Part shown: positions 42,842 through 63,100 of the stretch, in pieces
Layout of the letters: each line of letters opens with the position of its first letter
How positions within the stretch are numbered: the first letter of the stretch is position 1
From: Candidatus Cloacimonadales bacterium
Lineage (GTDB): Bacteria; Cloacimonadota; Cloacimonadia; Cloacimonadales; JAIOQZ01
Assembly (NCBI GenBank): GCA_963665815.1
Contig: OY762463.1
Span: 1,728,001 to 1,792,000 of the forward strand
Direction: 5' to 3'
DNA: 64,000 nt
Translations under genes and position numbers: made by a program
The notes under the pieces: generated by a model
What the model was told of the DNA's origin: nothing
Databases searched by the model: none
Seen by the model: the letters and a program-made list of their open reading frames with translations, nothing else

Positions 42842-43208
42842 CAAACCTCCACAGCATTAAAAAAAATTTCCAAATTAAAACTTTTCAGCTTTAACATACC
42901 AATCGGTACTGCCCTGAGCAGCAGTCAAGAACTTTTTGTATATTTTTAACCCTCAGCATTTACGAACAATTTTGTTCATTGTTCAGCTGCTTAATTTACA
43001 ACAAGATAAAGGTTAACTCTGAGTATTTACTTATATAAAATCAGCAGAAATCGTGATTGCTTTTCCATAAATCTCAAAATTTCTTAAAAATAATATTGAC
43101 GAAGGAAATAAAAAAAATCACACAATGATAATCGGAAGACTATGTATATAACTTATGATTTTTACTTTTATACAGAGCTCTCTATAATTTTAACATAATG
43201 GAGGATAT

Positions 43209-44222
43209 ATGGCTTTTTTTGATGGAATTATCAGACAATTGAGATCTGTAATCGAATGGGAATACCCAAGCAGCAATGATCTCTTCTTTCAGTGGTCAAG
43301 CGACGGAGACGAAATAAAGAATGCATCCAAATTAATTATCGGTCCCGGACAGGGCTGTATTTTTGTGTATCAGGGTAAAGTGATTTCAATGCTGGAAAGT
43401 GAAATGATGGTTGATCTGAAAACAGACAACATTCCTTTCTGGACAACTATCTCAAAAGTTATGCAGGCTTTTGAGTCTGAACATAAAGTCGGACTCTACT
43501 TCTATCGCAAAACCAGAATACTGGATCAGAAATGGGGTACTACCAGCAGTATCAAATACAATGATCCTGTCTATAACTTCCCTGTAGGGCTCAGAGCATA
43601 CGGAAACTTCAGTTTTAAAATAACTGACCCGGAAATGTTCTTCAAAACTGTCGTCGGTTCAGGTTACAACTTCACTGTTAAACACTTCAGAGATGTTGTG
43701 AACAGCAGAATTACAGAACCGCTTTCAGATTACCTTGCAGATATGAAATACTCCTATGCCGACATTGATTCAAAAAGAACTGAAATGTCTACATACTTCA
43801 TGTCAAGTCTCAAAAATGAGTTCAATAAACTTGGATTTGACCTCACTGACTTCCGTATTGAAGGGACATCATTCGATCAGGAAACACAGAAGCGAATCAA
43901 CAGAATTTCCGATCTGACTGCCGAAGCACATGCAGCAAAAGCAGCAGGAATGAACTACGCACAGGTTCAACAGCTTGATGCTCTTAAAGCCGCAGCCAAA
44001 AACGAAGGCGGTGGTGCCGGGATGCTTATGGGTGTAGGAGCAGGAGTTAATCTTGGTGGAAATATGGTAGCTGAAAATCCTTTCGGAGCAGCTCAGAAAG
44101 CTCCAAAAGCTGACTACGATCCATCTGAACGCCTGATGAAGCTGAAGAAACTGCTTAATAACGAGCTTATCTCTCAACAGGAATATGACAATAAAAAGAA
44201 ACAGATTTTAGAGGAGCTTTAA
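43209..44222 (+). CDS. SPFH/band-7 domain protein (YdjI-like) with C-terminal SHOCT domain
   Basis: VIEW, LIIGPGQ, TDNIP, KWGT, LRAYGNFSFKI, Ala/Gly-rich linker, RLMKLKKLLNNELISQQEYDNKKKQIL. RBS GGAGG. Confidence 0.85.
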   Translation: MAFFDGIIRQLRSVIEWEYPSSNDLFFQWSSDGDEIKNASKLIIGPGQGCIFVYQGKVISMLESEMMVDLKTDNIPFWTTISKVMQAFESEHKVGLYFYRKTRILDQKWGTTSSIKYNDPVYNFPVGLRAYGNFSFKITDPEMFFKTVVGSGYNFTVKHFRDVVNSRITEPLSDYLADMKYSYADIDSKRTEMSTYFMSSLKNEFNKLGFDLTDFRIEGTSFDQETQKRINRISDLTAEAHAAKAAGMNYAQVQQLDALKAAAKNEGGGAGMLMGVGAGVNLGGNMVAENPFGAAQKAPKADYDPSERLMKLKKLLNNELISQQEYDNKKKQILEEL

Positions 44223-44884
44223 TGCCAACCAGACTCTGTTCATCCTGTTCTGCTCCTTTGCCGTCTAACTCTAATCTCTGTGAATACTGCGGATGCTATA
44301 CTCCGTTAGATCTTATAAGTCAAAATCTGGAAATCCTTCCGGATCAGGAAGAGACACGGTATTGTCCTCACTGCGAAGTACCTATGGAATCCATATCTGT
44401 TCTGGAAGACGAACCGATTGTAATTGAACGTTGTCCTCAGTGTTACGGTTTCTGGTTTGATAAGTTCGAACTGAATCTGCTATTGAACAGACTTGTTAAA
44501 GATCCGACAATAAACGTAAAAAACATTGATATCGGTAACATGGAAGAAATCGATTTTACCAAAAAAGTTCAATACATCTCGTGCCCGGTCTGCAGTTCTA
44601 AAATGCAGAGACGTAATTACGGATACAAGTCCGGTGTTGTCTTTGATCTGTGTAATGAGCATGGAATCTATCTTGATTGTGGAGAGCTGCACCATTTGCT
44701 TCTATGGAAGAAAAACGGTGGTGAAGAACTACAGAGACTTCATGAACAGAAAATGGAAAAAATCAGAAGAAATCCGATTCCTGTTCCTGTTTCCAGATCA
44801 AGAGCTCATTACCATGGCAGATATAACGGGTATGAAGGTTTGGGATTAATCGGGACCATCCTCAGAATGCTAATTTTCCATTAA
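44222..44884 (+). CDS. Zn-ribbon plus double zf-TFIIB protein, copy 1
   Basis: CSSC..CEYC; CPHC..IERCPQCYGFWFDKFEL; CPVC..DLCNEHGIYLDCGEL. TAATG coupling to the SPFH gene. Confidence 0.85.
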   Translation: MPTRLCSSCSAPLPSNSNLCEYCGCYTPLDLISQNLEILPDQEETRYCPHCEVPMESISVLEDEPIVIERCPQCYGFWFDKFELNLLLNRLVKDPTINVKNIDIGNMEEIDFTKKVQYISCPVCSSKMQRRNYGYKSGVVFDLCNEHGIYLDCGELHHLLLWKKNGGEELQRLHEQKMEKIRRNPIPVPVSRSRAHYHGRYNGYEGLGLIGTILRMLIFH

Positions 44885-44886
44885 TC

Positions 44887-45456
44887 ATGATTGCAAGTAA
44901 AAGACTTTGCCCGGAATGTTCGACAGAAATGCAGACAATAACTGCATTACAGACTGTTACTGTAGGATTAGAAAAGAAAATCGAGATTGAGAAATGTCCG
45001 AATTGCGAAGGACTGTTCTTTGATAATCAGGAGCTACAGGATTTAGTAAGTTGCTTAAAGGAATATCCTGTTGATTCTGCCATAAGGTTCGATACGGAAA
45101 CTGCAAATGGCAGTATTTGGGATCGAGAACAATATAAATGCCCCATCTGCGGAGAAAAGATGCAGAAGGCTTATTATGAAGTGAAAAGCAGTGTTGCTTT
45201 TGACTATTGCCTTGGGCATGGTGTTTACCTTAATAAAGGGGAACTGACAGCAATCATCAGGTGGAAGAAAGAAAATATGGAACCAGATGATCCCGAAATC
45301 CTTGCAACATATCAGAAGAAACTTGATAAAATAAGTAAGAGAGTAAACTCTTCTGAAAAGCGATACGTTTCACCTTACGTGAAGTATTCTAAAGTTGTAG
45401 ACTATGTTTTAAGAAAACTTGCAGGATCTGTTTTTTATGGATTTATCAATTGGTAA
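44887..45456 (+). CDS. Double zf-TFIIB protein, copy 2
   Basis: CPEC..IEKCPNCEGLFFDNQEL; CPIC..DYCLGHGVYLNKGEL. Confidence 0.85.
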   Translation: MIASKRLCPECSTEMQTITALQTVTVGLEKKIEIEKCPNCEGLFFDNQELQDLVSCLKEYPVDSAIRFDTETANGSIWDREQYKCPICGEKMQKAYYEVKSSVAFDYCLGHGVYLNKGELTAIIRWKKENMEPDDPEILATYQKKLDKISKRVNSSEKRYVSPYVKYSKVVDYVLRKLAGSVFYGFINW

Positions 45457-45463
45457 ATAATTT

Positions 45464-46039
45464 ATGAAGCATGACACTAAAAAAGATGCAACCAAGACCT
45501 TGAGACTCTGCCCGGAATGTTCGACAGAAATGCAGACAATAAATGCTTTGCAGACAACTATTTCCGATTTCAAAGAAAAGATAGAAATCGAAAAATGTCC
45601 GAATTGCGAAGGACTGTTCTTTGATAATCAGGAGCTGCAGAACTTAGTAAGAATACTGAAGGAATATCCAGTTGAGACTGTATTGAAAATTGATTCAGCG
45701 AAAGATAATGTGAAGAGCATTACTTCAACAGATTATACATGCCCCATCTGCGGAGAAAAGATGCAGAAGGCAAACTTCGAGTCAACCAGTGGAGTTACAT
45801 TCGATTATTGCCTCGGGCATGGTGTTTATCTTAATAAAGGTGAATTAACTGAAATCCTTAGATGGAAGAAGAATCAGAGGAAAAACAATAGTAATAAAAC
45901 TACAGAAAAATACAATGATCTAATTATGAAATCCAGGGAAAAGCAAGCAAAGACAAGGTATTTTCGGAAGTTTGATTTCGACTCTAATGATAGAATTATT
46001 GATTTTTTTGAGTTCATTTTTGATTGGTTTATATTATAA
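45464..46039 (+). CDS. Double zf-TFIIB protein, copy 3
   Basis: Same motifs as copy 2, with near-identical DNA blocks. Confidence 0.85.
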   Translation: MKHDTKKDATKTLRLCPECSTEMQTINALQTTISDFKEKIEIEKCPNCEGLFFDNQELQNLVRILKEYPVETVLKIDSAKDNVKSITSTDYTCPICGEKMQKANFESTSGVTFDYCLGHGVYLNKGELTEILRWKKNQRKNNSNKTTEKYNDLIMKSREKQAKTRYFRKFDFDSNDRIIDFFEFIFDWFIL

Positions 46040-46755
46040 TGAAAACAGATGAAACAAAACAATGCCCGGTCTGCTCCGCTCCTTACGAATTTGGTATGGA
46101 AGAATGTGAATACTGCGGACATAGCTTTGATATAGAGAATCTGGAAGAAGAATTCTATGTTCTCGATGAACGTCATGAAAAAAGGTTATGTCCACACTGT
46201 AATATAGAAATGCTTTCCATCAAAGTGTTGAAAAACTACGATATAATCATTGAAAAATGCCCGAGATGTTCAGGAATGTTCTTCGATATGCAGGAAATGG
46301 AAAACCTTTTAAGACTGCTTGTAAAAGAAAAAGACGATGTAATTGAGAGAATAGACAGTTCAGATTTTAAACCTGTTGATTTTAACTCTAATGTCAGATA
46401 CATTAACTGCCCGGTCTGCAAACAACCAATGCAGAGAATCAGCTTTGAACAGGACAGCGGAGTAGTTTATGATTTTTGTCTTGGGCATGGAATCTTTCTC
46501 GATGCAGGAGAGTTGAAACAACTTACTGATTGGAAACGCCATGAAGGACAAAAGTATTTCAAGAAAGATCAGGAAGACATTAAGAAATATCTTGAGAAAA
46601 AGAATATTGAATATGATGAGAATTTCAGGATTAAGCCTCAGAGAGTAAACATGATGAAAGATTATCTTACAAGAGGCTCTGACTTTCCCAAATATGCTGC
46701 TGCTATCTATGTTGCAGTGACTATTTTCAGGCTTATTCAGATTGCGACAGGTTAG
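46039..46755 (+). CDS. Zn-ribbon plus double zf-TFIIB protein, copy 4
   Basis: TAATG coupling at 46037-46041; CPVC..CEYC; CPHC..CPRC.GMFFD; CPVC..CLGHGIFLDAGEL; hydrophobic tail. Confidence 0.85.
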   Translation: MKTDETKQCPVCSAPYEFGMEECEYCGHSFDIENLEEEFYVLDERHEKRLCPHCNIEMLSIKVLKNYDIIIEKCPRCSGMFFDMQEMENLLRLLVKEKDDVIERIDSSDFKPVDFNSNVRYINCPVCKQPMQRISFEQDSGVVYDFCLGHGIFLDAGELKQLTDWKRHEGQKYFKKDQEDIKKYLEKKNIEYDENFRIKPQRVNMMKDYLTRGSDFPKYAAAIYVAVTIFRLIQIATG

Positions 46756-46767
46756 AGGAGAACAATA

Positions 46768-47433
46768 ATGAAAAGAAAATGCAGTGTATGCTCGGCACCA
46801 ATGCCCGAGAACTCAAATTATTGTGAATACTGCAACACATTTAATGAATCAGATGCCAAAGACGATATACTCTTTCTGGAAAACGATAATAGCAATACGA
46901 GACTATGTCCTCATTGCGAAGTCCCCATGAGCTCTTTTCAGGCCTTGAAGGATGAAAACGTTATCATAGATATGTGTCCTGAATGCTACGGCATGTTTTT
47001 TGACAGAGGTGAACTGAGATATCTTGTTAATTTGCTTACTGATAATAAAGAGATAAACGTAAATAAAATAGATATTGGTGATTTAAAGGATATTGATCAT
47101 GTAAGATCAACTGATTATGTAAAGTGTCCTGTCTGCGGAGATACAATGCACAGAATCAACTATGAGGATTCAAGCGGTATAATATTTGATTATTGCAAAA
47201 AGCACGGTATCTATCTCGATAGTGGTGAACTTAAACAGATTCTGGCATGGAAGAAAACCAGCAAATTTGATTTCATCAGTGATAATAAGAGAAAAATCGT
47301 ACAATACACAAACGTGACAAAAGAATTTGAATTTGATGAGGATGAAGATGGCTTTAAACTTAAGCCATTTGATCCCAGTATTGTAGGAGGATCAATTGCT
47401 GCAATATTGTTCTTACTCGGATTCTTCCTGTAA
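46768..47433 (+). CDS. Zn-ribbon plus double zf-TFIIB protein, copy 5
   Basis: GAGGAG RBS; CSVC..CEYC; CPHC..CPEC.GMFFDRGEL; CPVC..CKKHGIYLDSGEL; TM-like tail. Confidence 0.85.
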   Translation: MKRKCSVCSAPMPENSNYCEYCNTFNESDAKDDILFLENDNSNTRLCPHCEVPMSSFQALKDENVIIDMCPECYGMFFDRGELRYLVNLLTDNKEINVNKIDIGDLKDIDHVRSTDYVKCPVCGDTMHRINYEDSSGIIFDYCKKHGIYLDSGELKQILAWKKTSKFDFISDNKRKIVQYTNVTKEFEFDEDEDGFKLKPFDPSIVGGSIAAILFLLGFFL

Positions 47434-47444
47434 AAGGTGACTTT

Positions 47445-48041
47445 ATGAAAGTAAAAAGATGTATAACCTGCTCTGCCCCGTTACCGTCGAATTCTTCGGT
47501 ATGCGAATATTGCGGTAACAACAATCCTCTGGATATCACCGATCAGAATATGAGCATTATCGATAATTGCGACAAGATAAGATCCTGCCCACACTGCAAA
47601 ACTGCTATGGAGACTGTCAGGCTGGACGAGTGCAGCGGACTTGAGATAGAACGATGCCCGAAGTGCTTCGGGTTCTTCTTCGATTTAAATGAGCTGGAGG
47701 AACTGCTGGACTATCTCGTTAGAGAAACTGTTGAAGATAAAGAGAGCATTGACAAAATCAACGAGTATACAAGTAATTTTTCCACAGATGTTACATACAA
47801 AAGATGCCCTGTATGCCATGCAAGAATGCGACGTCTGAATTTTGGTTATAAGAGCGGAATAATATATGACTTTTGTGATGATCATGGAATCTTTCTCGAC
47901 AGCGGAGAGCTGGATCACCTTGTAAAATGGTGCAGACATGGTGGTGCAGAACTAAACAGAGTTTATAAGAAAAAACTTAAAGAACGGAAAAGATATGTCT
48001 ATACACGTGGCTTCAGACCGGCAAGATGCTCAGGGATATAA
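47445..48041 (+). CDS. Zn-ribbon plus double zf-TFIIB protein, copy 6
   Basis: CITC..CEYC; CPHC..CPKC.GFFFDLNEL; CPVC..CDDHGIFLDSGEL; basic tail. Confidence 0.85.
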   Translation: MKVKRCITCSAPLPSNSSVCEYCGNNNPLDITDQNMSIIDNCDKIRSCPHCKTAMETVRLDECSGLEIERCPKCFGFFFDLNELEELLDYLVRETVEDKESIDKINEYTSNFSTDVTYKRCPVCHARMRRLNFGYKSGIIYDFCDDHGIFLDSGELDHLVKWCRHGGAELNRVYKKKLKERKRYVYTRGFRPARCSGI

Positions 48042-48044
48042 TTT

Positions 48045-48449
48045 ATGAGATATACCAATAATGTGATAGGGATAAATCCACAACAATTACATGGATTCTT
48101 CGTGGGCTGGCCAAACAAACCTGCTCCGGAAAAACACTTGGAGATATTGAAGAACAGCGCTTATATCTGGCTGGCAATAGATGAGGAAAATGACAAGGTT
48201 GTTGGTTTTGTGAATGCTGTCTCCGACAAAACCATGTCGGCTTATATTCCGTTACTGGAGGTACTGCCGGAATATCAGGGACAAGGCATTGGATCAGAGC
48301 TGATGAAGAGAATGCTCAGTACGCTCAAAGATTTGTATATGATTGATCTTGCCTGTGATATAGATAAAATGGACTTCTACGAGAAACTCGGACTTGTAAA
48401 AGGCAACTTGATGATGAAACGGAACTATGACAGACAGAATTGTGAGTGA
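48045..48449 (+). CDS. GNAT N-acetyltransferase
   Basis: LEVLPEYQGQGIGSELM acetyl-CoA motif; FYEKLG. Confidence 0.9.
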   Translation: MRYTNNVIGINPQQLHGFFVGWPNKPAPEKHLEILKNSAYIWLAIDEENDKVVGFVNAVSDKTMSAYIPLLEVLPEYQGQGIGSELMKRMLSTLKDLYMIDLACDIDKMDFYEKLGLVKGNLMMKRNYDRQNCE

Positions 48450-49611
48450 GATAGAAAAGTTGAGAAGACTTAACTTACTTTATATCTTAATAGCACTTAT
48501 ACTGAATGTATCATGTGCTTTTACCAAACCTGTTTCTCATCATAATGCATCAAAAGCTGTTGGACTTCAAAAGGAAGCTCGAAAGCTGGCAAATATTGTA
48601 AATCCGGATGATACTTATAGATACTCTAAATCTGATAAAGATTCAACAGCAATTGAGATTCTTGAAGGTGCTAATGCACTCGATCCAAATAATCAAAAAA
48701 TAGCTCTTGATCTTGCTTCCATTTACTACAGAAATAAGATGTATAGAGAAACAGCGATATTAGCAGAAAAGTATTTAAAGAAAGATACAACCGGTGATTT
48801 TTATAGTTTGTGTGTAAGAGGACACTATTTGAGAGATGATAATAGAAATTATAAAAAAGCTGACAGAATAATTGAAAAAGGATATAGGAAATTCCCAGAT
48901 AATCCGAGATTGTGTGTAGCATTTACTCGGCATTTGTTAAGTATGCAGGAAAAATGCGATTTCCTTAAATCTATTCTCAAAAAAAATCAATATCATATTG
49001 AAACAATGGATGAGTTATCATTTAAATTGAAGAATACAAGCAATGTCACTGAGTCAATGTACTATGGTGAGTTAGTTAGATTGTTCGATACAAATCAATC
49101 GAATTCAGATAATGAAAGCGATTTTCTATTTATTAAATATAAGGATTGCTTCAAGTTTGAGAACAACAAATTGAAATTTGACTACAACTTTGTGCAATTA
49201 GATTTTAGCAGGATTCTCCGAGAGATGGATAATGCTAAAAAACAGAAACGGGGAGTAATTATTGGAGTGAACTCAAAAACATCTTCAGTTAGAAAATCTA
49301 CATTTTCAAAAACTCTTGAAGATTATTATCTCAAAGCATCATTTAATGTAAGAGAATTTAGTTTTTCAAATCTAATACTAATAAGGAAAAATTTGATAAA
49401 ACTGTATTTCATGTATGAAAAAAACAAGCAAAATCCGGATAGACTTTTCGCATTCCACAAACAACTCATTGACCAGAACTTGTTCGAAGCATACAATTAC
49501 TGGCTTTTCAGATATGGTGTTGGAGAAAAGGAATTCAACAAATGGTATGCAGACCACCAGAATGACTACGAAAAAGTAGAGGCAATCGTACGAAGCAAAT
49601 TCAGATCATAG
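48427..49611 (+). CDS. Putative TPR-like helical lipoprotein
   Basis: Hydrophobic stretch ending LNVSC; ALDPNN and KFPDNP TPR-like turns; FEAYNYWLF. Start uncertain. Confidence 0.55.
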   Translation: MTDRIVSEIEKLRRLNLLYILIALILNVSCAFTKPVSHHNASKAVGLQKEARKLANIVNPDDTYRYSKSDKDSTAIEILEGANALDPNNQKIALDLASIYYRNKMYRETAILAEKYLKKDTTGDFYSLCVRGHYLRDDNRNYKKADRIIEKGYRKFPDNPRLCVAFTRHLLSMQEKCDFLKSILKKNQYHIETMDELSFKLKNTSNVTESMYYGELVRLFDTNQSNSDNESDFLFIKYKDCFKFENNKLKFDYNFVQLDFSRILREMDNAKKQKRGVIIGVNSKTSSVRKSTFSKTLEDYYLKASFNVREFSFSNLILIRKNLIKLYFMYEKNKQNPDRLFAFHKQLIDQNLFEAYNYWLFRYGVGEKEFNKWYADHQNDYEKVEAIVRSKFRS

Positions 49612-49632
49612 AAATTTTATCTACAATTATTT

Positions 49633-49665
49633 AGACTGACAGATTAGAGATAGTCTGTCAGTTTT
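49633..49665 (+). terminator. Terminator closing the SPFH/zf-TFIIB operon
   Basis: ACTGACAGATTA-GAGA-TAGTCTGTCAGT followed by TTT. Confidence 0.7.
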
Positions 49666-49860
49666 AGTATTCATACATTTTCATGTGAATTAAATCATAA
49701 CACGCTATCAACATGATATAAACTGAATAAGCATACTACTTTCACAAGCATTTCTATATCTAAACATCATCCAAAAAACAATTTATATATTTATTAATCA
49801 GCTTGACAATTTTACATATTTTCAATAGAAGTTGTAGTTGTATTTTTTAAGGAGATTGAA

Positions 49861-50142
49861 ATGGGTTCAAGAACAAGCTTAATAGGTATGTTAATTAACG
49901 CTGGAATAAAGGCTGAAAAAGAAAGATTAAGGGAATTAAAAAGACAAGAGCGGGAAAACATCAAAAATGAAAAAGAAAGAATTAAACTTCTTAAACAAAT
50001 TGAAAAACAACGACAAATTGATTTAAAAGAACAATTCAAAAATGCACTTGAAGAGGAAAAAAAATCTTACGAGCAAAGGATTGTCTATAGACGTAATTTA
50101 AGAATTAAATTTTTGAATAGGGTTCAGGAGGTAAATTTATGA
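49861..50142 (+). CDS. Small charged coiled-coil protein
   Basis: AAGGAG RBS; K/E/R-rich; ATGA overlap with the next gene. Confidence 0.7.
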   Translation: MGSRTSLIGMLINAGIKAEKERLRELKRQERENIKNEKERIKLLKQIEKQRQIDLKEQFKNALEEEKKSYEQRIVYRRNLRIKFLNRVQEVNL

Positions 50143-51581
50143 TTACTAAATTTTTACTTTTTTTGTTCATAGTTCTCTCTATTGTATTTTTTGTTGCTGC
50201 TTCGTACTTTTACTATCAAGTATATTCTAAGAGAAAGAAAAAAAAATCATTACATAAAGAACTTAAAGATATATTTGACGAAATTGGAATGAAAAAGCAG
50301 GAAGTTAAAAAACTTGAGAGCAAAATGGCCAGAATGAATGAGGAATTTTCTCATCTGAAAGAGCTTGAGAAGAATGAGATTGCAATCAGAGATAGCTTGA
50401 AAATTTCAGAAAATAGCTTGATGATTATTAAAGAAGAAATTGCGACCTTTAGTAACAAAAAAAATCTCATATCAAAAGAACTGGAATTTATGAAAAGGGA
50501 TATATCACTTTATAAACCAGTACATAATTTGATTGAACTAGGCTTTACTGATGAACCTGAGTATTTACAAAATACAAGTGAGGTGTATAAGGAACAGTTA
50601 AAAGCCATACGTGAACGACAAAAAGAGTTAATTGCAAATCAGTCTGCAATAATTGTCCCGGAATCAATTGCACTAACCAATAATGGTGCTCATGCGAAAA
50701 AAGTACTGAATGGACAATCCAGACTAATGCTCAAAGCTCTAAATACAGAATGTGACCTGCTTTTATCTAAAGTTAAAACCAGTAACTACCCTCGAATTCT
50801 CGAGCGGATTGATAGGTTAGCAGGTACAATTGAAAAAGCTGCTGCATCGTTGAAATGTGGGTTCAGCAAGGAGTATATTGAACTCAAATATAAGGAATGT
50901 GAGCTTCAATATCATTATAAGCTTAAAGAAGCTCGAGAAAAAGAAGAACAGGCATTAATCAAGGAGCAGATGAAAGAAGAGCAAAAAGCAATTAAAGAAT
51001 TTGAAAGAGCTCTGGCAAAAGCCCAAAAAGAAGAGCAGATGTATAGAAAAGCGCTTGAGGATGTCAAAAATGAATTGACGCTAACCAGTGATAAAGATAG
51101 AAATATCCTTCTTGAAAAAATCAGCGTATTGGAAAAACAACTGCAAGAGGCAGAAGAAAATGAAAAAAGAGCTATAAGCATGGCAGAGCAAACCAAAAGA
51201 GGTCACGTGTATGTGATTAGCAATATAGGATCGTTCGGAGAAAATATCTATAAAATCGGATTGACCAGGCGATTGGAACCCCTTGATAGAGTAAAAGAAC
51301 TTGGAGGAGCCAGTGTTCCATTCTCTTTCGATGTTCATGCAATGATTTACAGTGAAGATGCTCCAGCTCTTGAATCGCAATTACATAGAGAGTTTTCAAA
51401 GTTTAGAGTTAATCAGGTGCAATTGAGAAAGGAATTCTTTGATGTTGATTTAGCTAAAATACGAGAAAAGGTCATTGAAATCACTGGAAATGAACTTGAT
51501 TTTAAAGTGACGGCATTAGCAGAAGACTATTATGAATCACTGGAAATACGTAGAAGTTTAGAGGCTAAAGCCGGATCATAA
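50139..51581 (+). CDS. Membrane-anchored DUF4041 plus T5orf172/GIY-YIG-like nuclease protein (PD-Lambda-1/SNIPE-like)
   Basis: N-terminal TM, long coiled coil, LMLKALNTECD, EYIELKYKE, EEQALIKEQMKEE, GHVYVISNIGSFGENIYKIGLTRR, SVPFSFDVHA, RKEFF. Confidence 0.85.
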   Translation: MITKFLLFLFIVLSIVFFVAASYFYYQVYSKRKKKKSLHKELKDIFDEIGMKKQEVKKLESKMARMNEEFSHLKELEKNEIAIRDSLKISENSLMIIKEEIATFSNKKNLISKELEFMKRDISLYKPVHNLIELGFTDEPEYLQNTSEVYKEQLKAIRERQKELIANQSAIIVPESIALTNNGAHAKKVLNGQSRLMLKALNTECDLLLSKVKTSNYPRILERIDRLAGTIEKAAASLKCGFSKEYIELKYKECELQYHYKLKEAREKEEQALIKEQMKEEQKAIKEFERALAKAQKEEQMYRKALEDVKNELTLTSDKDRNILLEKISVLEKQLQEAEENEKRAISMAEQTKRGHVYVISNIGSFGENIYKIGLTRRLEPLDRVKELGGASVPFSFDVHAMIYSEDAPALESQLHREFSKFRVNQVQLRKEFFDVDLAKIREKVIEITGNELDFKVTALAEDYYESLEIRRSLEAKAGS

Positions 51582-59419: not shown

Positions 59420-62400
59420 TTAAATCTCTATTTCTCCTACAAACATTATGTCTTTATTCTTCTTGAGTTTCACTTCAATACGTTTGACTTTCTGATCAGA
59501 CTTACCATAATTTGTATAGATCGAAGCATACACAATCACCGAGCCTGTCAGCTCCTGACGGCTTTCCGAATAATACTTGGCTTTAATCCTGTAGGTGCCT
59601 TTCTCAGCCTTTCTGATAGTGTATTCTTCCGGACCATAGCCCTGGGTAAAGTCTTTGCTGAGTTTACCGCCTGATTTAGTGTTCTTGTTTTGATAATAAC
59701 ACTTTTCTCCACTTGGCTCAATAACCCATAAATCAATGTCGTTGTCGTTGCTGCTCCAATCCAGAACAATCCGTACGTCATACTCAAATGGATGGATCAG
59801 GTCTGTATTGATATCCGAGAGATCCAGTTGATCCCTATGCCCGGATATCAAACTGTTCATTTCGTTTATGATGATCGGTTTAGTATCAGAGAATCTCTCC
59901 CATCTATTATTCATAATGTGATTGAATGTATCCAGAGCCATCTGGAGTTTGCCGGCTGCCTGATATGCAAGTGCAAGATCTCTGTATGATTGCGGTTCTT
60001 CCGGTCTCAGCTTCTTTACTTCCTCAAAAAGAATGATAGCCGGATCATACTTGCCGATTTCTACAAGCTTCTTAGCCAGAATACGCATTAAAACAGGATT
60101 CTCCAGATCAATCTCAACCATATTAGTAAATACCCTGTATGCCTCTTCCAGTCTCTGCTTTTCTACCAGTGCTTTGGCAGAATTGAAGTAGAAGTAAGGA
60201 TTATTAAAATCCTCTTTCTTCTGCCTATAATATAGTTCCCAGAACTCTTCAATGTCAGCTTTTCGCATTCTCTTGATGTACTCAGTATTGCTGCTCCAGC
60301 CGGCAACATTAATACCGGATTTATCGCCACCCTTACTTTTCTTACTCCCGCTTCTTCCTCTTTCGACAATATTCATTACGCCTGATTGAGTGTTTCCATA
60401 ACCTTCGGGTGAGTTGAACGTTTCACTTGAACTGCGAACTGCATCATCATCTACAGAAAGTGATGCACCTCCATCAATCATAATGGTTGTTTCGTTAGCT
60501 CTTCCACCTCTTGCATGAGATACTCCACCAACTGTAACAGTTCCGGGACTGTTCTCCATAAACTGGCTTATTGATGAGCTTTCAATTGTCTCAACCATTT
60601 CAAGGTCATCTTCATTTGCTTCTTCTCCGATATCATCAATAACAATTTCCTGAGCCTTAATTCTTCTGATACCCTGTTGTTCAAATGATCGTGCCGGCTC
60701 TGAACTGGTTTCTCTTCGAGATGATCCGGATTTGGAACTAAGCAATTTAGGCTTACGATCTGTTACTGTAATAGCACTGGTTTTTATTGTAGCGAACCCT
60801 AATTCTGCATTCAATTCTATACTTTCATTGTCTTTAATTTTAACATCATTGATTTCCGCTTCCCTATACCCCATTCTTTTAAATTTGATAGTGTAAATCC
60901 CTTCTTCAAGTCCTGTAACATAATATTTACCAACCTCATTTGTCATAGCATTAGCAACCAATGAATTTCCGAGATAAACCAGAATAATAGCACCATGTAG
61001 AGGCTCTCCCTTTCTATTTGACACCACTCCAGATACTCCACTTTTTCCAGTACCACTTATCTTTACTATCTTCGAAGTCAGCTCTTTATTTAGTTCAACG
61101 TCTTGATTGAGTATAGTTTGTTTCCCCATCTCAATTTTTACGTTCTCAATCTTGACGTTTTCAATTTCTCTCGATGAAAATACAAGAGTATAAACTGAAG
61201 GAATAATTCCATCAATCCGGTACTCTCCATTTTTATCTGTCATTGCAGAGTTCACACATTTTCCATGTTTCTTGACAGTTACTCTTACGTACTGCATTGC
61301 TTCACCATATTGGTTGATAATCACACCTGCCACTGAACCCATTTTGTCTTTAGGATAATACCATCTAAATAGTTTCTGAACGAATCTGAAATTCTCCATA
61401 AATGGCACTTTCTTTTTTATTTCTTTTTTGCTGTTACTTATACGGGCAACCTGTCTTTTAAAGCTTTCTGTCTGCAACTCAGGCGGAGGTTCTATGCCGT
61501 GTCTGATGTAGTCCTGAAGCCTGTCCAGTACAAGCAGAGATGTGTTTTGGGTCACAATTGTGTGCTCCCTTGCCAGATTAAGCAGTTTTTCCTTGTTCTC
61601 TTCATAATCCTGTTCAAGATACTGTATTTTCTTTACAGCCCAGATTCTCTGCACCTTTGCTTGAGCGTCTTTATTGATCATAACGTTTTTAGTTATCTTC
61701 TCACCGTTAATCCTGCCAAAACTGATTTCCAGCTCAGCTTCATCCGACCCGAGCAGTCCGACCATCTCAAATGTTTTACCATAGGAGCTCATACTCTTTG
61801 GATAGACCTCGTATACATTGCCGTCAACTTCCTCAAGAGAAAGAAATCTCTGGCTGACAGTGTTTATTCTCTGCAATGCTTCGTCTACAGACAGCTTTCT
61901 AAGGTTAAGATATTCTCCACCGGATTCACCTGATAGCTTCTTCAGGTAGCCATAGTTACTGCCTGTACTGGATGAAATGGTGTATGCCGGTACATCACCC
62001 AGGGTTATATTCTCTTTCCCCAGTGTATTTATTCCGTCTGAGAAAAGCAGAATCTCATCCGCTTTTACAGTAAAATCCAGATTCATCAGGTTTGTTCCAC
62101 CGTCATATTTAAGCTCTTCCAGATAACTCTTTACATGATTCGATATACTCTTACCGGTAAATACTTTCTTATCGTGAATCTCATTGCTGAAAGTAATAAT
62201 CTCTACTTTTGCACCTTCGGGGAGTGTTTTCAGATAAGCTGAAAGGAATGCTGTTTCCTTTTCAATATCTCGTTTATCACCGGAGTTTGAAACATCCCAG
62301 TAAACTGTCAGCATTTGGGGTATACTCTTCGTCTCTGATTTGAATACAGGTGGTTCCATTGTTATATAGAAATAGGTTTCACCTTCGTATTCACTGGTGT

Positions 62401-63100
62401 AAACTTCGTAATCATTGGTAACGTACTTCGGGATATCGAATGCAAGTTCTTTATTGGTCTTGAAGTTTTTCTTTTTGTAATTGATTGTCTTGTAGCCGTC
62501 ATCCTCACCGCATATTACTTTCTTCAGTCCGGCAAGAAAACCTTTCAACTCAGGGGATTTATCTGCAACCTTAATCTTGAGATCGAAGTCTTTTATTTTT
62601 CCTGCGCGTTCCAGAGGAACAGCATACTTATAGCTTGTATCATCTCCATCAAGTGTTTCGCATATGGCAATTACCACTCTTTTGAATCCTTTGGAGGGTA
62701 CAGGATAAATCTTGGTTTTAAAGAAGTTACCTTTGGTTTTGTTTATAATACCGGGATCTATCTTACGTCTGATGACTTTCTCGAAGGTCTGTCTTGCTTT
62801 AATCTTTTCTACGATTACGCCTTCTCTGAGTTTCCCGTTAACATCCAGAGCATAACGGCAAATTTCCTGTCCCTCCGCCATGGGCATGGATAATTCACCG
62901 GTAAGTATACGGTTGTTTGGGTTGTAAAAGTTCATGTCGTAAGTAGTTGTGGCTATGTTCCCGACAACCTCAACATCAATTGTTAATGATGACAGCTCTA
63001 GAGGTTTTTCATCTTTGCTGCTTACAACAGTTAGTGATGGAACCTGAGCAAAACTTGTACATACAATTGCCAATAATAGTAATATCCAGATAGATTTCAT
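59420..63100 (-). CDS. Secreted VIT/vWA-like protein with two carboxypeptidase-regulatory-like domains, TonB plug-like segment, TPR and DUF2135/YfaP C-terminus
   Basis: VEVVGNIATT..FYNPN..GEL, IDPG, WDVSNS, YDGGT, LFSDG, TSLLVL; TDKNGEY and TNEVGKY; RPEEPQSYRDLA; DIDLWVIEPSGE, DFTQGYGPEEY. Confidence 0.85.
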   Translation of the reverse strand: MKSIWILLLLAIVCTSFAQVPSLTVVSSKDEKPLELSSLTIDVEVVGNIATTTYDMNFYNPNNRILTGELSMPMAEGQEICRYALDVNGKLREGVIVEKIKARQTFEKVIRRKIDPGIINKTKGNFFKTKIYPVPSKGFKRVVIAICETLDGDDTSYKYAVPLERAGKIKDFDLKIKVADKSPELKGFLAGLKKVICGEDDGYKTINYKKKNFKTNKELAFDIPKYVTNDYEVYTSEYEGETYFYITMEPPVFKSETKSIPQMLTVYWDVSNSGDKRDIEKETAFLSAYLKTLPEGAKVEIITFSNEIHDKKVFTGKSISNHVKSYLEELKYDGGTNLMNLDFTVKADEILLFSDGINTLGKENITLGDVPAYTISSSTGSNYGYLKKLSGESGGEYLNLRKLSVDEALQRINTVSQRFLSLEEVDGNVYEVYPKSMSSYGKTFEMVGLLGSDEAELEISFGRINGEKITKNVMINKDAQAKVQRIWAVKKIQYLEQDYEENKEKLLNLAREHTIVTQNTSLLVLDRLQDYIRHGIEPPPELQTESFKRQVARISNSKKEIKKKVPFMENFRFVQKLFRWYYPKDKMGSVAGVIINQYGEAMQYVRVTVKKHGKCVNSAMTDKNGEYRIDGIIPSVYTLVFSSREIENVKIENVKIEMGKQTILNQDVELNKELTSKIVKISGTGKSGVSGVVSNRKGEPLHGAIILVYLGNSLVANAMTNEVGKYYVTGLEEGIYTIKFKRMGYREAEINDVKIKDNESIELNAELGFATIKTSAITVTDRKPKLLSSKSGSSRRETSSEPARSFEQQGIRRIKAQEIVIDDIGEEANEDDLEMVETIESSSISQFMENSPGTVTVGGVSHARGGRANETTIMIDGGASLSVDDDAVRSSSETFNSPEGYGNTQSGVMNIVERGRSGSKKSKGGDKSGINVAGWSSNTEYIKRMRKADIEEFWELYYRQKKEDFNNPYFYFNSAKALVEKQRLEEAYRVFTNMVEIDLENPVLMRILAKKLVEIGKYDPAIILFEEVKKLRPEEPQSYRDLALAYQAAGKLQMALDTFNHIMNNRWERFSDTKPIIINEMNSLISGHRDQLDLSDINTDLIHPFEYDVRIVLDWSSNDNDIDLWVIEPSGEKCYYQNKNTKSGGKLSKDFTQGYGPEEYTIRKAEKGTYRIKAKYYSESRQELTGSVIVYASIYTNYGKSDQKVKRIEVKLKKNKDIMFVGEIEI

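Follow-up and report, generated by a model that had tools for sequence, protein, structure and literature searches.

A conserved SPFH-SHOCT and zinc-ribbon gene pair and the amplification of its second gene in a genus of Cloacimonadales

Why should a single gene for an SPFH protein be followed by six tandem genes for zinc-ribbon proteins? The question is raised by a locus of a Candidatus Cloacimonadales bacterium whose genome (3.96 Mb, a single contig) is 98.7% complete. The stretch analysed, here called the window, is 64,000 nucleotides (nt) long (positions 1,728,001 to 1,792,000 of contig OY762463.1, assembly GCA_963665815.1), and positions at the locus are counted from its first letter. The element as a whole occupies 43209-49665 and holds genes for an SPFH protein with a SHOCT-like tail, six zinc-ribbon paralogs (Z1 to Z6), a GNAT acetyltransferase and a TPR-like protein. 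An earlier note on this DNA had placed all of them in one apparent operon and had read the scaffold with its paralogs as a candidate membrane surveillance system, for envelope stress or, by preference, for anti-phage sensing. The answer reached below is a different one: the conserved unit is a two-gene module, an SPFH-SHOCT gene followed by one triple-ribbon gene, and the array is an amplification of its second gene. The amplification is confined to one Cloacimonadales genus.

The module was found by scanning outward from each of its two genes. An SPFH-centred scan, with one genome per species, gave 344 loci, the best 80 of which were examined; one of these (L016) is that of the congener of the host, leaving 79. 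A ribbon gene lies directly downstream of the SPFH gene in 68 of the 79 (67 full-length, about 220 amino acids (aa), and one cut by a contig end), and a stop/start overlap of the two genes is frequent. The 79 loci are mostly from Methylococcaceae and hence are not independent; the others are from Campylobacterota, Fibrobacterota, Nitrospirota, Planctomycetota, Bacteroidota and further groups. The pair is present in the cultured methanotrophs Methylotuvimicrobium buryatense 5G and Methylomonas methanica. In the other direction, a metagenome scan that used the six paralogs alone as seeds returned 80 loci, 33 of them with full-length members at E < 1e-39, and an SPFH gene lies directly upstream in 19 of the 26 loci that have enough upstream sequence. 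The linkage of SPFH and zf-TFIIB genes on which the earlier reading depended thus extends well beyond this genome.

Elsewhere the second gene is single. No second ribbon copy was seen in the 59 genome loci (among the 67) with at least 700 nt downstream, nor in the 25 metagenome loci (among 34 at E < 1e-30) that leave as much room, and within the Cloacimonadota only the congener, with eight copies, also has an array. Such arrays are rare, in keeping with the earlier note, which knew of no described system with a six-member one. Proteins of Desulfamplus, considered as possible paralogs, were rejected, being 74-96% identical orthologs from different assemblies. There is also no third gene conserved across phyla: clustering of the neighbours of the 80 loci gave lineage-bound synteny only. 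The top cluster, a hexapeptide-repeat protein encoded upstream in 38 loci, mostly of methanotrophs, is not shared by the window. The GNAT and TPR-like genes, which the earlier note had counted as part of the operon, cluster with no neighbours outside the genus and are not conserved partners there. A search of the literature found no description of the SPFH and zinc-ribbon pair or of the array (subscription journals and bioRxiv supplements lay outside the search, and the supplementary tables of PMC11237479 may list such neighbourhoods); the two-gene module is apparently undescribed. At one locus (L077, 11197-14862) a partnerless SPFH-SHOCT gene is followed by a gene for a 1221-aa protein with tandem AAA ATPase regions, which give weak IetA/TRIP13-like matches in PADLOC.

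In the window the nine open reading frames (ORFs) are tightly packed on the + strand between 43209 and 49611, with junction gaps of -1, 2, 7, -1, 12, 11, 3 and -23 nt along the row. A reading of the junctions bears out the operon-like packing described earlier (gaps of 12 nt or less), including the TAATG stop/start overlaps at 44220 (SPFH/Z1) and 46037 (Z3/Z4). The features, with their coordinates and strand, are as follows.

43161..43188, + strand: promoter-like site TTTACT-16-TATAAT, from a consensus scan (10/12 matches), about 20 nt 5' of the SPFH start
43209..44222, + strand: SPFH protein (Band_7_1) with SHOCT-like tail; 337 aa; PF13421 at 1.2e-36
44222..44884, + strand: Z1, three zinc ribbons (N-terminal C4, C4, C3H), basic linker and C-terminal hydrophobic/amphipathic helix; 220 aa; two PF13453 matches, DZR at 30.4 bits
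44887..45456, + strand: Z2, two zf-TFIIB ribbons and a tail, without the N-terminal ribbon; 189 aa
45464..46039, + strand: Z3, without the N-terminal ribbon, tail IIDFFEFIFDWFIL; 191 aa; 56% identity to Z2
46039..46755, + strand: Z4, three ribbons and a tail of transmembrane (TM)-like hydrophobicity; 238 aa counted from the ATG
46768..47433, + strand: Z5, with three ribbons; its tail, PSIVGGSIAAILFLLGFFL, is the most hydrophobic and may be a tail anchor; 221 aa
47445..48041, + strand: Z6, three ribbons, without a hydrophobic tail, ending ...RGFRPARCSGI; 198 aa
48045..48449, + strand: GNAT acetyltransferase, 3 nt past Z6; 134 aa; PF00583 at 1.8e-13
48427..49611, + strand: TPR-like protein with a hydrophobic N-terminus, its start overlapping the GNAT gene by 23 nt; 394 aa; TPR_19 at 9e-7
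49633..49665, + strand: terminator-like hairpin with a 14-bp stem (49633-49664) and a 4-nt loop, then a U run, from folding of 49625-49672

The promoter-like site is a candidate only, such sites numbering 31 in the region against 28.4 in shuffles; GGAGGA lies at 43199-43204, just 5' of the SPFH start. For Z4 the mechanical ORF start is a TTG at 46024, and the ATG at 46039 overlaps the Z3 stop. The terminator placed at 49633 by the earlier note was not reported by a simple terminator scan, but dedicated folding of 49625-49672 recovered it (-20.3 kcal/mol, z -6.4, with 0 of 200 shuffles folding equally well). The TPR-like protein begins with a hydrophobic segment ending ...LILNVSC (KD19 2.08 at residues 15-33) and has a weak NCBIfam lipoprotein match, so that a lipoprotein or a signal anchor is plausible from its sequence. 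The GC content of the operon (0.36-0.39) is inside the range of the window and therefore gives no sign of recent transfer. The surrounding genes have housekeeping roles and encode tRNA synthetases, a carboxylase subunit and an RND efflux system, the last as an operon with its TetR. Farther along the window (59420-63100, - strand) lies a gene for a 1226-aa protein with VIT, CarboxypepD_reg and DUF2135 domains, unrelated to the operon.

The first gene of the module is a clear member of its family. Its product matches PF13421 at 126.7 bits (cut-off 24) over profile positions 3-208 of 211, and 43209-44222 is the sole PF13421 gene of the genome. The SHOCT match (PF09851; residues 307-334, the full 28-residue profile) reaches 24.6 bits, just below the cut-off of 27 (E 2e-5). 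The AF2 model has SHOCT-like helices at 305-317 and 323-336, and PF09851 appears in the precomputed annotation of many SPFH homologs at about 60% identity. Of the domains that the earlier note had named, the SPFH, zf-TFIIB, GNAT and TPR-like ones thus have Pfam matches (PF13421, PF13453, PF00583 and TPR_19), and the match to SHOCT fell just short of its cut-off. The SPFH domain is set apart from the tail by a Gly/Ala/Met-rich low-complexity stretch (about 265-302), which is conserved and disordered in the model. No TM segment was found in the SPFH protein (maximum KD19 1.15). The model (pLDDT 71.7) matches the fold of prohibitin, HflK/C, stomatin, flotillin, erlin and QmcA: the structure search gave 36 PDB chains at E <= 0.001, the best at 6e-8 (residues about 13-265), and the SPFH profile gave no match to PDB sequences at E <= 0.01. 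Relatives number 2105 at E <= 1e-10, with full-length identities of 60-66% for the best of them outside the genus. In the PHROG search the SHOCT tail alone matches, to two phage families of unknown function.

What the literature offers on such proteins is quoted here from the available parts of the papers cited by PMC number. SHOCT is most often associated with PF13421, and a test of SHOCT oligomerisation was negative (Eberhardt et al., 2013, PMC3581485). Band_7_1/SHOCT proteins are missing from the usual model organisms, according to the same paper. SHOCT-like domains have been predicted to be tethers at the inner leaflet, and Band-7 proteins together with zinc-ribbon (ZnR) proteins are counted among the partners of PspA (Ravi et al., PMC11237479).

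The second gene encodes a small protein of zinc ribbons. Each of Z1 to Z6 has two PF13453 (Zn_ribbon_TFIIB) stretches, scoring 52-69 bits (cut-off 22). All 12 PF13453 matches of the genome sit inside the array, which is therefore not a chance pattern. Profile and alignment agree with the ribbons read from the letters in the earlier note, a C4 and a C3H ribbon in all six and an N-terminal CxxC...CEYC ribbon in four (Z1, Z4, Z5 and Z6), the last being above the DZR cut-off only in Z1. Invariant in the six-way alignment are C48 P49 C51...C71 P72 C74 G76 F79 D80 E83 of one ribbon and C121 P122 C124...D142 C144 H147 G148...G154 E155 L156 of the other, which is the C3H site. The zinc ligands are intact in all 14 paralogs (6 in the window and 8 in the congener), and pairwise identity among the paralogs is 33-56%. 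A model of Z1 built with 40 aligned sequences (pLDDT 85.2, pTM 0.71) has ribbon strands and, past ribbons 2 and 3, helices; its linker is of low confidence, and residues 208-219 form a terminal helix. Neither Pfam nor NCBIfam gives a further domain in the ribbon proteins, including any helix-turn-helix (HTH) or other known DNA-binding domain. Proteins of 420-2000 aa related to the ribbon family at E <= 1e-8, which would be fused forms, were not found, although this is weak evidence.

The single-copy orthologs are built to one plan. Three ribbons come first (C4, C4 and, in nearly all, C3H); a WKKAGG motif follows, then a long basic linker, and the extreme C-terminal segment has the conserved motif ...DLLxxVSSLVFKLF. 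Taken over 64 of these orthologs, the helical hydrophobic moment of the terminal 14 residues has a median of 0.53; 14-mers from the linker give 0.24. The tails of Z4 (KD19 1.63 at residues 220-238) and Z5 (KD19 2.13, mean hydrophobicity 0.90, moment 0.11) are hydrophobic enough to be possible tail anchors.

The amplification itself is best seen by comparison with relatives of the host. When the ribbon profile was run over 232 Cloacimonadota genomes, full-length members were found only in the host (6) and its congener (8). Likewise, among 41 close relatives a strong PF13421 match occurs only in these two, the others giving at most 26.1 bits, to the C-terminal part of the profile only. The congener locus has the order of the window: a divergent TetR gene, the SPFH gene, eight paralogs, the GNAT gene and a TPR-like gene. 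In a quick maximum-likelihood tree of 81 proteins, one branch (SH-aLRT 100) splits the 14 paralogs from 67 single-copy genes, and six window/congener ortholog pairs are recovered (Z1-cZ1, Z2-cZ3, Z3-cZ4, Z4-cZ5, Z5-cZ7 and Z6-cZ8). The two remaining congener genes, both on long branches, diverge at a point deeper than the split of the species. The parsimonious reading of this tree would be duplication within the lineage, then loss of two copies in the host.

Smaller relatives of the ribbon proteins occur elsewhere in the phylum. Another 31 Cloacimonadota genomes (e.g. L098, L099 and L004) have one or two small (about 130 aa) two-ribbon proteins (E 1e-10 to 1e-21). Such a protein, single and made up of just two zf-TFIIB ribbons, is common in f11, another family of the order (30 of 62 genomes). 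In a sister genus of the same family (G003), three tandem genes (L012, 6045-9518) encode proteins of 376-419 aa in which one or two N-terminal Zn_ribbon_TFIIB stretches are fused to a rhomboid protease domain; this genome is without a Band_7_1 gene. With these fusions, tandem zf-TFIIB paralogs occur at the membrane a second time within the family, and similar genes are present in G005 and G006.

The two genes of the module evolve at very different rates between the congeners. The SPFH protein is 98% identical to the congener copy (dN 0.011, dN/dS 0.029) and the flanking genes have dN of 0.026-0.040 and dN/dS of 0.06-0.08, whereas the six ribbon pairs have dN of 0.066-0.168 and dN/dS of 0.07-0.39 (Z1 0.14, Z2 0.39, Z3 0.25, Z4 0.09, Z5 0.08 and Z6 0.07). 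Identity to the congener ortholog is 81% for Z1, 88% for Z6 and 94% for GNAT. By a crude Nei-Gojobori estimate, omega is 0.05-0.16 in the ribbon cores and 0.07-0.50 in the C-terminal parts, where one dS is saturated; omega is above 1 in none of the regions, so that positive selection is not seen at this resolution. The identity of the C-terminal parts in Z1-Z4 drops to 33-59% between the species. The ribbon paralogs thus evolve far faster than the SPFH gene, mainly in their C-terminal tails. The differences among paralogs are discrete and kept in both species: the first ribbon is missing from Z2 and Z3, the tails of Z4 and Z5 are TM-like, and Z6 is without a hydrophobic tail. Because dN/dS is low, the ligands are intact and these differences are kept, the six copies are maintained, distinct genes under purifying selection, and neutral evolution, which would have spoken against the earlier note, is not what they show.

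Synonymous divergence is uneven along the operon. It is raised in Z1 and Z4-Z6 (dS 0.87-1.85) and in the TPR-like gene (2.3) relative to about 0.4-0.5 in the flanks; for Z1 and Z4-Z6 this is two to four times the value of the SPFH, GNAT and efflux genes (0.37-0.48), all in one syntenic block. Recombination with divergent alleles is one possibility. The TPR-like protein is only 53% identical to the congener copy. The congener has two tandem TPR-like genes (390 and 380 aa; L011, 10472-12815), and the 3' end of the window gene matches the 3' end of the second of these, at 82% over 313 nt. The pattern suggests that recombination or loss has marked the history of this gene.

What might such a pair do? 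We give about an even chance to the proposal that the SPFH protein forms sub-membrane assemblies served by alternative zinc-ribbon adaptors. It starts from the observed gene order, domains, conservation of the pair, lineage-restricted expansion and purifying selection, and to these it would add binding, attachment of the tails to the membrane and a division of labour among the paralogs. A soluble SPFH protein, with its low-complexity linker and SHOCT tail, would be co-translated with a small three-ribbon protein whose role, close to the membrane, is that of an adaptor for the SPFH oligomer or of its regulator. The ribbon core would bind the SPFH protein; the inner leaflet, or else the SHOCT helices, would be where the basic linker and the amphipathic tail come to lie. 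Together they would form a scaffold beneath the membrane, much as SamG and SamH hold SamI there in Bacillus. In this genus repeated duplication of the adaptor gene would have led to the 6 copies of the window and the 8 of the congener, with the ribbon cores left intact and the accessory parts diverging: two copies may have lost the N-terminal ribbon, two may have gained tails of tail-anchor grade and one may have lost its tail. The paralogs could then stand for alternative modes, peripheral, tail-anchored and soluble, and since they differ in tails and in the N-terminal ribbon, one scaffold could be placed or regulated in several ways. On this reading they would be interchangeable adaptors, much as the earlier note had inferred.

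Binding was approached by predicting the complex of the SPFH protein with a ribbon partner. The score was 0.37 (runs 0.42, 0.36 and 0.37), with 0.00 for the best control; between runs, agreement in contacts is at least 93%, and the partner has a pLDDT of at least 62. Of 157 solved complexes 116 reach the mark for the score, as do 2 of 215 mismatches; those that reach it with 0.60 or less include only 18 of the 157 solved complexes but both of the mismatches. The prediction thus lends weak support to binding; because the prior from linkage is high, even a weak score raises the odds a little.

Several points weigh against the proposal. The predicted complex passes only weakly and came without an interface. 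The linkage has gaps, 11 of the 79 SPFH loci being without a ribbon gene and 7 of the 26 assessable ribbon loci without an SPFH gene upstream. The tail of the single-copy proteins is too short and polar for a TM helix, and it might be directed at the membrane, at SHOCT or at another target; SHOCT may itself bind the membrane, which would make an anchor role of the ribbon protein unnecessary. The tree of 81 proteins is unrooted, was made in quick mode and has long branches (long-branch joins were flagged). The Bacillus mechanism is not transferable as a whole, as the PspA and TPM partners are absent. Nor is the ribbon protein a YdjG homolog by its architecture: it has 189-238 aa, no further domain and, in the AF2 model, ribbons and helices only, and the description of YdjG sets the two apart.

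A bolder form of the proposal, which we consider unlikely, would have the conserved SPFH-SHOCT scaffold programmed by interchangeable zinc-ribbon adaptors (amphipathic, tail-anchored or without a tail), so that a cage-forming protein is sent to different membrane states or clients; the one-adaptor module would then be an unrecognised, PspA-independent membrane-surveillance unit and the genus would have its multiplexed form.

Band_7_1/SHOCT proteins are numerous and strongly conserved, and a fixed pair gives a concrete two-component hypothesis for their role. The methanotrophs that carry the pair are cultured and offer tractable hosts. The arrays of six to eight copies are a natural experiment, from which it appears that the N-terminal ribbon and the tail may vary and the ribbon cores may not.

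The same observations can be read in other ways. The ribbon proteins could be nucleic-acid-binding or signalling regulators that an SPFH assembly sequesters and releases on a membrane signal, by a logic like that of PspA-PspF or of SamI restraining SamH, the paralogs being several outputs of one sensor. SamI does regulate SamGH signalling (PMC13713150), the linker is strongly basic, and the linkage and coupling data fit this idea equally. The family names in the sources ('Zn-finger nucleic acid-binding protein', 'transcription factor zinc-finger') also point this way, but they are automatic, and neither Pfam nor NCBIfam shows an HTH or any other known DNA-binding domain. A small zinc-finger protein, ZifS, is the one relative with a solved structure, and no paper on it was found; the conserved C-terminal amphipathic helix fits contact with membrane or protein better than DNA binding. 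We therefore think this quite improbable. An expansion without special functional meaning, in which partly redundant or dosage duplicates drift in non-essential C-terminal parts by birth and death, is similarly improbable. It would account for the change of copy number between congeners (6 and 8), for the long branches of the two extra congener copies, for the low constraint on the C-terminal parts (omega up to 0.50) and for the one copy or none in every other lineage. However, both species have kept the six copies as orthologs, with intact metal ligands and omega of 0.07-0.39; at 33-56% identity the paralogs are old and distinct; and discrete features such as the N-terminal ribbon and the tail type are conserved between species. 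Least probable of all, and hardly to be expected, is that the ribbon proteins are zinc or thiol-redox sensors or buffers that couple metal or oxidative state to the SPFH scaffold. Each protein has three invariant metal sites and twelve Cys/His ligands, with six proteins in tandem, and the histidine of the third, C3H site is invariant among the paralogs; yet the neighbourhood has no metal-homeostasis gene and nothing in the data points to sensing. Zinc ribbons are mostly structural.

The anti-phage reading favoured by the earlier note would make the locus a defence or abortive-infection system, with the SPFH scaffold holding diversified zinc-ribbon sensors of phage components. The tandem paralogs are indeed diversified, their variable parts evolve fast, and Z1, Z4-Z6 and the TPR-like gene exceed the flanks in dS. 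The neighbour 0.5 kb downstream, called SNIPE-like in the earlier note, is real: the gene at 50139-51581 has a full-length match to PD-Lambda-1 in PADLOC (2.4e-150) and to PHROG 1847 (3e-128), with DUF4041, T5orf172 and MUG113 domains. We take the DUF4041 and T5orf172/Mug113 nuclease architecture of PD-Lambda-1 to be SNIPE-like. A 93-aa Lys/Glu-rich ORF precedes this gene, its stop overlapping the start (the two spanning 49861-51581). The inference drawn from the neighbour is not supported, as PD-Lambda-1 lies past the hairpin, has its own upstream small ORF and has no counterpart in the roughly 3.3 kb of locus sequence that follow the TPR-like gene of the congener; it is a neighbour and not a component. 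PADLOC-DB 2.0, which dates from 2023 and does not cover later systems, gave no match for the SPFH, Z1, Z2, Z4, GNAT and TPR-like proteins (Z3, Z5 and Z6 were not among the queries), and the sole PHROG match is that of the SHOCT tail. Defence-island enrichment, which the earlier note had proposed as a check, is not apparent either: around 17 diverse loci, 15 of 124 neighbour ORFs (of 190 listed) have PADLOC matches, all of them weak, partial and to generic domains (e.g. methyltransferase, helicase, GTPase and AAA), and the flanks of the module, here and elsewhere, are housekeeping genes. Identity of the SPFH protein between phyla is about 60%, which is unlike arms-race genes; omega was nowhere seen to exceed 1, and an effector domain is lacking. 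A role in defence is thus very unlikely, and adaptors on a sub-membrane SPFH assembly remain the preferred reading.

How, then, does the module compare with known systems? The predicted fold and the logic of an SPFH protein with an operon partner are shared with HflK/C-FtsH, QmcA-YbbJ/NfeD, prohibitin, stomatin and flotillin. Those proteins, however, have their own TM or hairpin anchor and their partners are proteases or NfeD, whereas the SPFH protein of the window is without a TM segment and is paired with a zinc-ribbon protein. The Band 7 (PF13421) and SHOCT architecture of PMC3581485 has the same domain order as the first gene, and the available parts of that paper describe no downstream zinc-ribbon partner or array. 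For the ribbon module the sole solved relative is ZifS (TTHA0897) of Thermus thermophilus (PDB 8yoz), matched by profile at E 3.9e-7 over positions 45-91. It is also the top Foldseek match (39-40% identity over 47-49 columns, E 0.07-0.1), the ribbon model having no Foldseek match at E <= 0.001. Its chain has 82 residues, the match covers the second ribbon only, and it offers no functional lead; a literature search for 8YOZ, ZifS and TTHA0897 found nothing relevant.

The closest comparison is with the pspA-ydjGHI (pspA-samGHI) operon of Bacillus subtilis, to which the earlier note had pointed. The envelope-stress part of that comparison is incomplete: the host genome has no match to PspA (PF04012), a profile that gave matches in 9 of 14 named control genomes, and none to the TPM domain of YdjH/SamH, for which the controls were positive as well. 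With neither PspA nor TPM/YdjH in the genome, the locus is not a Psp operon, and that assignment was rejected. The likeness lies in the SPFH family, as PF13421 also matches the B. subtilis control, and in the theme of a soluble SPFH protein with a zinc-finger partner. SamI/YdjI is a PF13421-type SPFH protein without an anchor, with a low-complexity region and a C-terminal zinc finger, and its recruitment to the membrane needs SamG, which has a cytoplasmic zinc finger, and SamH (PMC8581546, PMC13713150). To judge from the parts of these papers available, both it and the window protein are without a membrane anchor, have a low-complexity region past the SPFH domain and a small C-terminal module, and adjoin a gene for a protein with cytoplasmic zinc ribbons; the C-terminal module is SHOCT here and a zinc finger in SamI. 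The partners differ further. YdjG consists of two ZnR domains, an NTF2-like (YpeB-related) domain and a TM segment (PMC11237479, as far as available), whereas the partner here has three ribbons and a short tail without an NTF2-like domain, and only Z4 and Z5 have TM-like tails. PF13453 has no match in the B. subtilis control genome. In contrast to the Bacillus operon, the SPFH gene here comes first and has six partner copies, not one. The pair extends the SPFH-plus-zinc-finger theme of the Bacillus SamGHI proteins to organisms without PspA.

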